Below, piece after piece: positions 7,189 to 8,215 of a stretch of 64,000 nt of DNA. The notes below the pieces were generated by a model. The model saw only the letters and a list, made by a program, of their open reading frames with translations, did no database searches and was not told where the DNA came from. The position numbers were made by a program, and so were the translations under genes. Each line of letters begins with the position of its first letter. The first letter of the stretch is position 1. The DNA comes from a virus (lineage: Duplodnaviria > Heunggongvirae > Uroviricota > Caudoviricetes), in IMG/VR virus record IMGVR_UViG_2636416131_000001, positions 1 to 64,000 of that record, one strand, 5' to 3'.

Positions 7189-7268
7189 ACAACAGGTAAG
7201 GGCGCTGGTGTGATTAACCAGATGAACGAGAAGGGGCCATCTGTTGGTCAGCGTCCTTTCCTGTTGCG
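7189..7268. repeat. imperfect palindromic hairpin element, copy A of a four-member family
   Basis: 5' arm ACAACAGGTAAGGGCGCTG pairs with 3' arm CAGCGTCCTTTCCTGTTGCG; arms shared with copies at 7628 and 8130. Confidence 0.4.
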
Positions 7269-7471
7269 TTTTCTTTTCAGCGTAACAGCGGTGCTTAACA
7301 GCACTTTGGGTACAGTTCCACGAATTTACGGGTATATCCCGTCATGCTGAAGGCGCTAATCACGCTGGAAGCCAGGGTTGTGCATCCCCTGTTACCGAAT
7401 TGCAGCCAGGGCGCGGTGCGCCGAAAAGCATACGGAGGTGGAAGCCCTCGCCGGAGACGTACCCGGCAAGT

Positions 7472-7547
7472 GATGGTGTAGCTCAGCGGTTAGAGCGGTT
7501 GACTGTTAATCAACGGGTCGATGGTTCAAATCCATCCACCATCGCCA
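7472..7547 (+). tRNA. trnA: tRNA-Asn (anticodon GTT)
   Basis: Manual cloverleaf: acceptor GATGGTG/CACCATC, D-stem GCTC/GAGC, anticodon loop CTGTTAA, T-arm GATGG-TTCAAAT-CCATC, encoded CCA. Confidence 0.9.
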
Positions 7548-7549
7548 AT

Positions 7550-7625
7550 GCCGGTTTAGCTCAGTTGGTAGAGCGCCTGCCTTGTAAGCAGGATGTCAGC
7601 GGTTCGAGTCCGTTAATCGGCACCA
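7550..7625 (+). tRNA. trnT: tRNA-Thr (anticodon TGT)
   Basis: Manual cloverleaf: acceptor GCCGGTT/AATCGGC, anticodon loop CTTGTAA, T-loop TTCGAGT, encoded CCA. Confidence 0.9.
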
Positions 7626-7627
7626 GC

Positions 7628-7713
7628 ACAACAGGTAAGGGTATTTTGCGACGTCGGAGATCGCCGAGCTTGGCAGAGGGTTCGAATCCCTACGAAGTAC
7701 CCTTACCGTTGTG
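7628..7713. repeat. hairpin element copy B, immediately 3' of tRNA-Thr
   Basis: ACAACAGGTAAGGGTA ... TACCCTTACCGTTGTG arms; contains a tRNA T-loop-like GGTTCGAATCC but no full cloverleaf. Confidence 0.4.
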
Positions 7714-7855
7714 ATGAAGTGCAGCTCTTTGAAGCAACCAGAAGATAAGCATCTGGCTTCACAACATAAACCGCAGGAACGACCAATAAACGGTAGTCCG
7801 TATGGAGAACACCCCGTTGAGGAAGAGGCCTGGCCGGAACCGTAACCGGCACTAC

Positions 7856-7944
7856 AACGTTGAGAACACTGGCGTAACGGGGTCATATCCCAATCTACGA
7901 ATAAATGTTGCGTTGCAGCGTGACAACCAGTGTTCTCAACATTG
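7856..7944. repeat. long hairpin element copy C (18-bp stem, 17/18 paired)
   Basis: CAACGTTGAGAACACTGG pairs with CCAGTGTTCTCAACATTG; loop shares ACGGGGTCATATCCCAATCTAC with copy D. Confidence 0.4.
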
Positions 7945-8129
7945 TGGTGAATGCACAGGCTGATGTGCCGCAACTACAGTAGTGCGCGCTTTGCGGGGCT
8001 TGCTACAACCCTGTGTCGGAGTTCAGCACCGACCATCACAGTTTGATTCTCTGGCATGAGCATAACGCTGAAATAAGTCCAGTCTGGTGCGGCCCGATCA
8101 CCCGCCGTTAGCTCCACGAAACGGAGCAC

Positions 8130-8215
8130 GTAACAGGTAAGAGCATTCTCCTGTAACGGGTTCATATCCCAATCTACAGGTCCACCAGGAATGCTCTTTC
8201 CGTTGCGGTGAATGC
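8130..8215. repeat. hairpin element copy D
   Basis: AACAGGTAAGAGCATTCTCCTG ... CAGGAATGCTCTTTCCGTTGCGG; shares ACGGGTTCATATCCCAATCTAC core with copy C. Confidence 0.4.

Follow-up and report, generated by a model that had tools for sequence, protein, structure and literature searches.

What are the four imperfect palindromes that lie among the tRNA genes of a P1-type bacteriophage, and do they act as DNA, as RNA, or not at all? The question concerns a 64,000-nucleotide stretch of viral DNA (positions 1 to 64,000 of IMG/VR record IMGVR_UViG_2636416131_000001; hereafter the window). The window is a P1-type phage genome: positions 6800-8360 match NC_005856 68677-70236 at 99.9% identity, so the P1 annotation can be transferred to it, with P1 coordinate minus 61877 giving the window coordinate. 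The four elements, here called A to D, all lie in the untranslated leader of the C1-repressed ban operon. They are very probably members of a conserved family of sense-strand RNA hairpins. With moderate confidence, they can be read as cis-acting RNase III processing and stability stems, for which cleavage in P1 is a prediction.

All four elements are predicted to form stems of 19-24 bp with variable tops. Each was folded as RNA and compared with 200 dinucleotide shuffles, none of which folded as well as the real element in any of the four cases. Hairpin A (7188-7268, + strand; inverted repeat I2) has ~40 paired positions and a simple top, and its region 7183-7274 folds at -44.8 kcal/mol (z -6.2). 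Hairpin B (7627-7713, + strand; inverted repeat I5) reads CACAAC-A-GGTAAGGG...CCCTTACC-GTTGTG and folds into a stem of ~24 bp, interrupted by a bulged A, below a three-way top (7622-7717, -42.7 kcal/mol, z -5.2). Hairpin C (7853-7946, + strand; inverted repeat I1) reads TACAACGTTGAGAACACTGG...CCAGTGTTCTCAACATTGTG and carries a branched top on a 23-bp stem (7846-7953, -49.2 kcal/mol, z -6.1). Hairpin D (8129-8207, + strand; inverted repeat I8) reads CGTAAC-A-GGTAAGAGCATTC...GAATGCTCTTTCC-GTTGCG (8126-8219, -36.1 kcal/mol, z -4.4), and its 3' flank, GGTGAATGC, is conserved family-wide. The + strand fold is the more stable in four of four elements, with - strand energies of -32.9, -36.4, -42.2 and -29.2 kcal/mol for A to D.

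The elements are related through their arms and, in one pair, through their tops. A, B and D share AACAGGTAAG (repeat family D1) and an arm type of the form CACAAC(A)GGTAAGRGC...GCYCTTWCC GTTGYG, and a 16-nt GCACAACAGGTAAGGG is identical at 7187 and 7626 (repeat D5). C has a sister arm type, CAACGTTGAG...CTCAACATTG (also ACAACGTTGAGAAC...GTTCTCAACATTGT). C and D carry at their tops a common 25-nt loop core, GTAACGGGKTCATATCCCAATCTAC, at 96% identity (repeat D2). The closing hexamers are CACAAC/GTTGCG in A, CACAAC/GTTGTG in B, TACAAC/ATTGTG in C and CGTAAC/GTTGCG in D. All four elements thus carry the features that define the family, hexamers YRYAAC/GYTRYG together with the arm motif (G)GTAAGRGC or GTTGAGRNC, and the strict arm pattern has 0.00 chance matches expected in shuffles. 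A preliminary description of this DNA, made from sequence alone, had noticed four related imperfect palindromes with shared arms and a shared loop core. A repeat finder returns the palindromes within a few bases of where that description placed them, along with the repeats that join them, and the folding it proposed as a check gives z-scores of -4.4 to -6.2.

Family membership was assessed with a covariance model (R2) built from 33 full-length non-P1 members aligned over a 19-bp stem, with which the whole 64-kb window was searched with filters off. On the + strand, the model scores A at 34.8 bits (E 1e-6), B at 51.4 bits (E 7e-11), C at 42.1 bits (E 1.5e-8) and D at 41.2 bits (E 2.6e-8); the corresponding - strand scores are 27.4, 33.3, 39.4 and 25.2 bits. 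The next-best match in the window reaches only 14.8 bits (E 0.1) and is a short inverted repeat within a 569-aa open reading frame (ORF), so the window contains exactly four members. Weak matches at 51723-51766 and 52758-52805 were rejected as members because they are 7-10 bp inverted repeats inside that 569-aa ORF. An earlier model (R1), composed of the arms and a GAAA loop, could not span tops of 40-60 nt and missed all four elements; it was superseded by the full-length model. The covariance-model scan that the preliminary description called for therefore gives a two-part answer, with no Rfam match and a family model, built without P1 sequences, that finds exactly A-D. In Rfam searches of the window region, lambda, CUS-3, the SSU5-like locus and 17 further loci, only tRNA reaches its gathering score. 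Matches of C to mir-142 (27.6 bits) and of A to mir-465 (24.1 bits) were set aside, as they merely reflect a long hairpin.

The family extends far beyond this genome. Local folding finds the same stems with different tops in P7, D6, SJ46, RCS47 and Ro157c2YLVW, which answers the question of conservation across P1-like genomes; C is kept in P7, D6, RCS47 and Ro157c2YLVW, and an element identical to B stands behind tRNA-Thr in many P1-like contigs. Close P1 relatives carry 2-5 copies, with P1, P7 and RCS47 differing in whether they have B, a further copy B', or both. Hairpins homologous to A occur in P7, D6, SJ46 and SSU5-like plasmids. The IncFIB SSU5-like phage-plasmids of Shigella, Klebsiella, Cronobacter and E. 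coli carry 4-5 copies each and are unrelated to P1 apart from the non-coding tRNA region. The strict arm pattern occurs in at least 119 IMG/VR contigs, many of which are lambdoid-sized with no tRNA nearby. D6 (L004) has an additional 48-nt match to the family model at 3639-3686 (37.4 bits), 3' of tRNA-Ile and 5' of ban, with no counterpart in the window.

Lambda itself carries a member at 44787-44862 (CACAACAGGTAAGAGCATTG...CAGTGCTCTTTCCGTTGTG; R2 58.3 bits). It lies between Q and S in the late leader, where it starts 7 nt past the tR' U-run (tR' being the terminator of 6S RNA), and it is the sole stem of at least 19 bp between tR' and S. Copies of the lambda type at 90% identity or more are found in 55 deposited phages of Escherichia, Klebsiella, Salmonella and Shigella. 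CUS-3 has a copy directly after its own tR', and HK620 has a single copy genome-wide (15994-16099), again between Q and S. In the Qin prophage of E. coli K-12, a copy lies between ydfC and dicF (NC_000913 1649173-1649256; R2 43.9 bits) and is not expressed in K-12 data sets. A pattern scan of one-genome-per-species bacterial data returned 42 stretches, most of them chance matches without a stem. The stem-forming matches come from Enterobacterales (Escherichia, Rahnella, Pantoea, Erwinia, Ewingella and Mixta) and from two metagenome-assembled genome (MAG) or uncultured entries with Enterobacterales-type copies; the exceptions, palindromes in an Oligoflexus and a Tannerellaceae MAG, were rejected as unrelated. 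The hairpins are unannotated in both the P1 and the lambda records, and the arm sequences are absent as text strings from the literature searched. The preliminary description had treated the family as a local feature of P1, a view that does not survive its spread through temperate enterobacterial phages.

The stem is conserved in both sequence and pairing. It has a median length of 21 positions among 94 unique oriented copies and clusters at 19-23 bp, and it supports ~40 unrelated apical types of 30-90 nt, each well conserved within its type across many contigs. Covariation was scored on an arms-only alignment of 40 types in which the tops were swapped for GAAA and the extrahelical base was removed for register, a treatment that leans towards structure. 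Standard pairs fill 93.2% of the alignment cells, and 15 of 21 pairs show double-sided changes (107 cells). The covariation score is 0.424 against 0.172 for column shuffles, none of 500 of which reach 0.424, and sliding the partners lowers it to 0.06-0.10. Pairs 1-7 (CACAACG/CGUUGUG), 11-12 (A11-U36 and G12-C35) and 18 are nearly invariant in sequence. Mismatches are frequent at pairs 8-9, and a bulged A stands behind the hexamer in about half of the types, which places a helical defect 7-9 bp up the stem. Pair 17 is U.G in 25 of the 40 types, C-G in 9 and U-A in 6. Pairing falls off beyond position 19, and a 3' flank of the form RUGAAUGC is conserved behind many copies.

Several asymmetries bear on the strand on which the elements act. 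All asymmetric copies within 700 nt of a tRNA lie on the tRNA strand (87 of 87), and in the tRNA-oriented set, where orientation is independent of the hairpin, G.U pairs outnumber A.C pairs 132 to 22; in both counts, many copies are close relatives and not independent events. The sense strand receives the higher R2 scores in P1, P7, D6, RCS47, SSU5-like plasmids, lambda, CUS-3, HK620 and Qin, with two marginal exceptions. All of A-D score best on the + strand, which is the strand of the ban operon, and the lambda, HK620, CUS-3 and Qin copies are in sense with transcription. The direction is uniform across unrelated genomic contexts. The strand bias, the G.U excess and the R2 scores point to the transcribed strand, that is, to RNA.

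The hairpins often keep close company with tRNA genes. The cargo genes that they flank in the window are tRNA-Asn (P1 trnA; 7472-7547, + strand; Rfam tRNA model 74.5 bits) and tRNA-Thr (P1 trnT; 7550-7625, + strand; 72.9 bits), both also called by ARAGORN. Hairpin A sits ~200 nt 5' of tRNA-Asn. B starts 2 nt 3' of the CCA of tRNA-Thr and carries in its top a T-arm-like AGGGTTCGAATCCCT, with a 4-bp stem and a 7-nt T-loop-like loop, much as the preliminary description had reported. Family copies also lie 1-2 nt past the CCA of tRNA-Thr in S. sonnei and E. coli p1107-111K and 1-2 nt past an 87-nt tRNA-Ser-like gene in P7, S. sonnei and K. pneumoniae, and one K. pneumoniae copy overlaps the CCA of tRNA-Asn. 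No tRNA accompanies the copies in lambda, HK620, CUS-3 or Qin. The suggestion that the elements are small structured RNAs or processing signals therefore gains from the covarying stems, the sense orientation, the G.U excess and the abutment on tRNA 3' ends, whereas specificity for tRNA operons does not hold. The 87-nt gene is a tRNA-Ser(UGA)-like gene at P7 (L005) 2476-2562, present also in L004, L009, L010, L012 and L013 and not in the window. Its carriers are P7, D6, E. albertii and SSU5-like plasmids, with a family hairpin 1-2 nt behind it, and the L009 copy has the tRNA-Sec model as its best Rfam match (44.6 bits, under the gathering score of 47).

The arms of the hairpins also mark where related genomes part. 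Homology between lambda and L025 ends 21 nt into the 5' arm, the extra copy B' of RCS47 is bounded by duplicated 3' arms, and homology of P7 and D6 to P1 resumes in the 3' arm of D. SJ46 carries a 255-bp deletion whose ends are the two 25-nt loop cores of C and D (SJ46 L006 ~1877-1901 against window 7874-7898 and 8153-8177); it joins the 5' arm of C to the 3' arm of D, and both hairpins are lost. SJ46, a phage-plasmid whose genome was deposited as complete, is in effect a natural knockout of both C and D. A ~65-nt segment, TTAAGCGAATRCCGGAAGCAGAACCGGATCACCAAATGCGTACAGGCGTCATCGCCGCCCAGC, forms the hairpin top in P7 (L005 2564-2675) and D6 (L004 2395-2506), and the same segment in lambda (44866-44930) lies outside and immediately 3' of the hairpin, as an inter-hairpin spacer. 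Judging from these breakpoints, the arms also serve as recombination joints, whatever their role in RNA. Unpaired solo hexamers (TCACAAC, CTACAAC and GCACAAC) without a partner arm occur at window 7759-7765 and 8003-8009 and at lambda 44932-44938, and tandem CACAA-CACAAC stands at the 5' edge of several copies (RCS47, S. sonnei, L021 and L082). Both kinds may be recombination scars at the hexamer.

What would such hairpins do in the RNA? Structure, covariation, strand bias, family membership and position beside tRNA 3' ends or terminators are directly supported; co-transcription from the ban promoter (Pban), the identity of the nuclease as RNase III and the consequences of its cuts belong to the proposed model. 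A single long RNA would start at the C1-controlled ban promoter and run through the leader, A, tRNA-Asn, tRNA-Thr, B, C, D, tciABC, tRNA-Ile and ban. The annotated promoters P1ban/P2ban and operator Oban (~6774-6819, + strand, transferred from the P1 reference) are the presumed start of the transcript that carries all four hairpins. Host RNase III would cut the stems and split the tRNA-bearing segment from the downstream mRNA. The cut would free the blocked 3' side of tRNA-Thr for exonucleolytic trimming to CCA, and the remaining half-stems would set the stability of the RNA pieces.

Several observations make RNase III the favoured candidate. A stem that starts at CCA would block 3' exonucleases until it is cut, and, since B begins at the CCA end, 3' trimming of tRNA-Thr would be impossible before a cut. 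RNase III is the sole E. coli endonuclease known to be specific for long double-stranded RNA (dsRNA). Stem lengths of 19-24 bp (median 21) fit about two helical turns of dsRNA. The RNase III dimer holds ~22 bp of dsRNA (PMC6212723). No U-run follows any of A-D, and the sole + strand terminator-like site in the leader is at 6977-7007, so the hairpins are not intrinsic terminators. Transcription would have to read through this site to reach the tRNAs and ban. Family stems sit at tRNA, terminator and mRNA borders in long untranslated RNAs. Stem length, the lack of U-runs, the border positions and the stem abutting CCA are together the reasons for which this reading is preferred.

Known RNase III substrates offer partial parallels. 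The RNase III sites of phage T7 (R0.3-R18.5, with R1.1 as the model site) are, like the P1/lambda family, related irregular stem-loops between the genes of polycistronic phage RNA, with stems of about two helical turns and internal defects. Cleavage of the T7 sites leaves protective 3' hairpins (PMC8708148). The T7 sites have no sequence kinship to the family and are unbranched and placed between mRNAs, whereas the family has large, variable and sometimes branched tops, an invariant base, a spread over unrelated temperate phages, and cleavage that is only predicted. The 16S and 23S stems of the rrn operons are long stems in a non-coding polycistronic RNA that carries tRNAs, as in P1. RNase III makes the first cuts there and exonucleases finish the ends (PMC8708148). 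In the rrn stems, the paired sequences lie over 1.5 kb from each other with the product enclosed between them, whereas the P1 stems are local and lie beside their products.

Two family members outside P1 bear more closely on the question. The dicBF operon of Qin contains one, and the P1 leader likewise contains a stretch that the P1 record names the 'dicF-like region' (6914-7015, + strand), which is closed by the 6977-7007 terminator-like site and has no Rfam DicF match at E<=10. RNase III processing of the dicBF transcript is documented, and DicF is made by RNase E and RNase III (PMC5069750). The documented RNase III cut is, however, the DicF 3' end, ~180 nt 3' of the Qin hairpin, and none is reported for the hairpin. 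The lambda late-leader hairpin resembles P1 B and D in its closing hexamers, bulged A and U.G pair, but lambda has one copy and no tRNA, where P1 has four copies interleaved with tRNAs.

A lead in favour of RNase III comes from lambda. Daniels, Subbarao, Blattner and Lozeron reportedly described, in 1988 (Virology 167:568, as cited in PMC7547250), one or more RNase III sites in the lambda late-gene leader or transcript, as the title has it; placing these sites in lambda 44787-44862 is a strong lead rather than a result, drawn from that title and from the presence of a sole long stem. Four points weigh against the RNase III reading. RNase III has little sequence specificity, which by itself leaves the near-invariant lower stem (CACAAC/GUUGUG, A11-U36 and G12-C35) unexplained. 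The covariation alignment was fitted to the structure, with the extrahelical base removed and palindromic copies oriented by free energy. Part of the arm conservation could lie at the DNA level, because the arms are recombination joints. Finally, individual copies are dispensable: close relatives have anywhere from 2 to 5 of them, and C and D are missing from SJ46. The invariant base, the dispensability, the arm breakpoints and the switch of one segment between top and spacer keep three rival accounts in play, in which the stems are passive or protein-binding structures, small RNA (sRNA) scaffolds or DNA linkers.

The strongest of these, though unlikely, holds that the stems are functional and uncut by RNase III, as passive insulators in a long untranslated RNA. 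They might possibly help the tRNAs to fold independently, block 3'-5' exonucleases, deny loading sites to Rho, or bind a host protein at CACAAC/GUUGUG. Structure, covariation and strand bias fit this account as well as they fit RNase III processing, and a near-invariant lower stem suits a sequence-specific binder better than it suits RNase III. Insulation would also make sense in the P1 leader, where ~1.5 kb of RNA is untranslated and lacks a conserved ORF. The account falters at B, where an uncut stem at the CCA end would get in the way of 3' maturation of the tRNA. Clustering at 19-23 bp is a need of RNase III and not of an exonuclease block, and there is no candidate binding protein common to P1, SSU5-like elements and lambdoid phages.

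It is improbable that the stem is a processing scaffold like that of a primary microRNA (pri-miRNA), from which RNase III releases the tops as ~40 different predicted small RNAs of 40-80 nt. The ~40 unrelated apical types on one conserved stem and the good conservation of tops within each type fit this idea. T-arm-like hairpins are enriched, occurring in 3 of the 40 tops (P1 B, an E. albertii type and an Ewingella type) against 0.17 expected, and none of 1000 shuffles reaches three. Released tops that bear a T-arm could serve as decoys for tRNA-directed host enzymes or defences, or could regulate them. The prophage regions around family copies are moreover rich in sRNAs (PMC4104026; bioRxiv 10.64898/2026.05.13.724894). 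However, the tops have no common motif and have been lost in SJ46 without obvious cost. They look like interchangeable filler, because one segment serves as a top in P7 and D6 but as a spacer in lambda.

Slightly less probable again is an action as DNA, in which the elements are linker or boundary recombination sites that shuffle tRNA and moron modules, or, in the extreme form, attC-like cassette sites. The homology breakpoints in the arms (lambda/L025, RCS47, P7/D6 and SJ46) and the solo hexamers (window 7759 and 8003, lambda 44932) are what such sites would leave behind, although recombination at repeated arms is also an expected by-product of dispersed repeats. Compensatory stem changes would be unneeded if sequence alone served recombination, and neither the six-fold excess of G.U over A.C on the transcribed strand nor an orientation that follows transcription in every one of the 87 asymmetric copies is expected of a DNA site. 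The tRNA-Tyr insertion of Ro157c2YLVW, which lies between two tRNAs, is not bounded by hairpins.

Three known classes of DNA element invite comparison here. Integron attC sites resemble the family as imperfect palindromes of 57-141 nt with conserved ends, extrahelical bases and a variable top, and GCACAAC...GTTGTGC agrees with the integron RYYYAAC...GTTRRRY at 6 of 7 positions on each side, mainly through AAC...GTT. The family differs from attC in that its asymmetry follows the transcribed strand, its stems are much longer and more regular than R/L boxes, and the elements do not bound tRNA gain or loss. No integron-type integrase (IntI) was seen in the annotated stretches examined near the copies of P1, lambda and HK620, the remainder of the window being unscanned for integrases. 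An attC-like reading is weak. Clark et al. (2001) are said to have described boundary or linker sequences of lambdoid mosaics in HK620, which the CUS-3 record labels bsq. Such sequences share with the family a short, conserved, non-coding nature and a place at module joints, and the CUS-3 copy lies between bsq4 and bsq3. Identity with these boundary sequences was rejected, since bsq4 of CUS-3 ends at the first base of the hairpin (1512) and bsq3 follows ~215 nt later, which leaves the hairpin body unannotated; the boundary concept, being one of DNA, predicts neither covariation nor strand bias. Correia, ERIC and REP elements are, like the family, dispersed imperfect palindromes of ~80-120 nt that are co-transcribed with genes, and some Correia elements are RNase III substrates. 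They occur as near-identical full-length copies with target-site duplications, whereas family members have only their arms in common, with unrelated tops, no flanking direct repeats and copies confined to phage leaders. An identity as MITE or REP elements was rejected on these grounds.

Decay of tRNA genes, or fragments left by rearrangement of the tRNA cluster, was among the suggestions of the preliminary description and is very improbable as a general account. Its appeal comes from the good T-arm of B (AGGGTTCGAATCCCT), a weaker T-arm-like hairpin in C and D (at GGGKTCATATCCC), the enrichment of T-arm-like tops, and relatives of P1 that carry extra tRNAs (Tyr and Ser) in the same region. An Rfam cmscan of A-D finds no tRNA, tmRNA or YrlA match at E<=10, and ARAGORN finds nothing at A-D and only the three true tRNAs. 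The defining long stem is found in no tRNA, 37 of the 40 tops have no T-arm, and the lambda, HK620 and Qin copies have no nearby tRNA. Some tops may nevertheless hold captured pieces of tRNA, because T-arm-like hairpins exceed chance.

Between tRNA-Thr and tciA lie ~730 nt without a conserved ORF, close to the ~700 bp in which the preliminary description saw no convincing reading frame. The P1 reference does annotate two genes there, plp (7596-7973, - strand; a putative lipoprotein with a TTG start) and upl (7974-8165, - strand), which run antisense to hairpins B, C and D. The idea that the palindromes are incidental to these genes is the least credible of all: upl is listed among the up-regulated P1 genes in one RNA-seq paper (PMC8201110), but plp, which overlaps tRNA-Thr antisense, either carries stops or is split by frameshifts over 2-3 frames in six relatives that keep the hairpins (Ro157c2YLVW, P7, RCS47, pSa1423 and IMG/VR L016 and L017), upl is missing in P7, D6 and SJ46, neither has a Pfam family, and RefSeq plasmid records, in an incomplete table, list no coding sequence beneath the match. 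Conservation of a protein, which would have told against a structured RNA, was thus not found. As the hairpins are conserved where the reading frames are not, plp and upl are probably spurious and not genes.

In the remainder of the operon, tciA starts at 8357 (+ strand, P1 annotation) and is followed by tciB and tciC, tRNA-Ile (CAU) at 9057-9132 and ban starting at 9413. A promoter scan of 6700-9500 returned no sites and missed the annotated Pban as well, so it is uninformative on internal promoters. The tciA 5' leader (8204-8323, + strand) lies directly 3' of hairpin D, starting at its conserved 3' flank, and has a sub-threshold match to the prophage sRNA STnc100 (RF02076; 33.4 bits against a gathering score of 47, E 6.8e-5). 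A 2026 preprint links STnc100 to the PasD sRNAs, which are sited near the Q antiterminator gene in prophages. The leader 5' of hairpin A (7010-7150) shows apparent low-identity homology to SSU5-like phage-plasmids (L010 803-943, L011 838-947 and L012 793-924), which takes in a small hairpin, CACGGGG...CCCCGT. The whole non-coding leader, beyond the four elements, may thus be a structured RNA shared between P1 and the SSU5-like phage-plasmids.

Upstream of the operon, the dmt methyltransferase ORF (3512-6799, + strand) encodes 1095 aa, compared with 754 aa in the P1 reference. The extra 341 aa form an intein that has Hint and LAGLIDADG domains and sits immediately ahead of the catalytic Cys in C5-methyltransferase motif IV (GGTP|CFTAGH...VVHN|CQAFS). 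RCS47, Ro157c2YLVW and E. albertii pEA32_2 have the same long dmt.

Three points appear to be new: that P1, SSU5-like elements and lambdoid phages have one covarying scaffold in common, that this scaffold is tightly coupled to the 3' ends of tRNAs, and that its tops are diverse. Should the 1988 lambda sites fall within the lambda hairpin, elements of this kind are already known, and those of P1 are new members present in several copies. For P1, the annotation is corrected: ~700 bp assigned to two hypothetical antisense genes are better read as structured non-coding RNA of the ban operon. More widely, a single RNA element, absent from Rfam and apparently unannotated even in lambda, links the leaders of groups that have been treated separately, namely P1, the SSU5-like phage-plasmids, lambda, and the P22-like phages HK620 and CUS-3. 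Because its arms are also recombination joints, the element helps to explain how tRNA and moron modules move between unrelated phages. With the family-wide model, candidate processing sites can be annotated in the moron regions of prophages, which hold toxins, tRNAs and sRNAs. If the scaffold account were true, P1, lambda and SSU5-like elements would share a phage analogue of small-RNA production in the style of pri-miRNAs. If the link to RNase III is true, it would supply a concrete maturation route for phage tRNAs whose 3' ends are buried in a stem. Overall, the finding is a useful re-annotation and a testable model of processing rather than a new kind of system.

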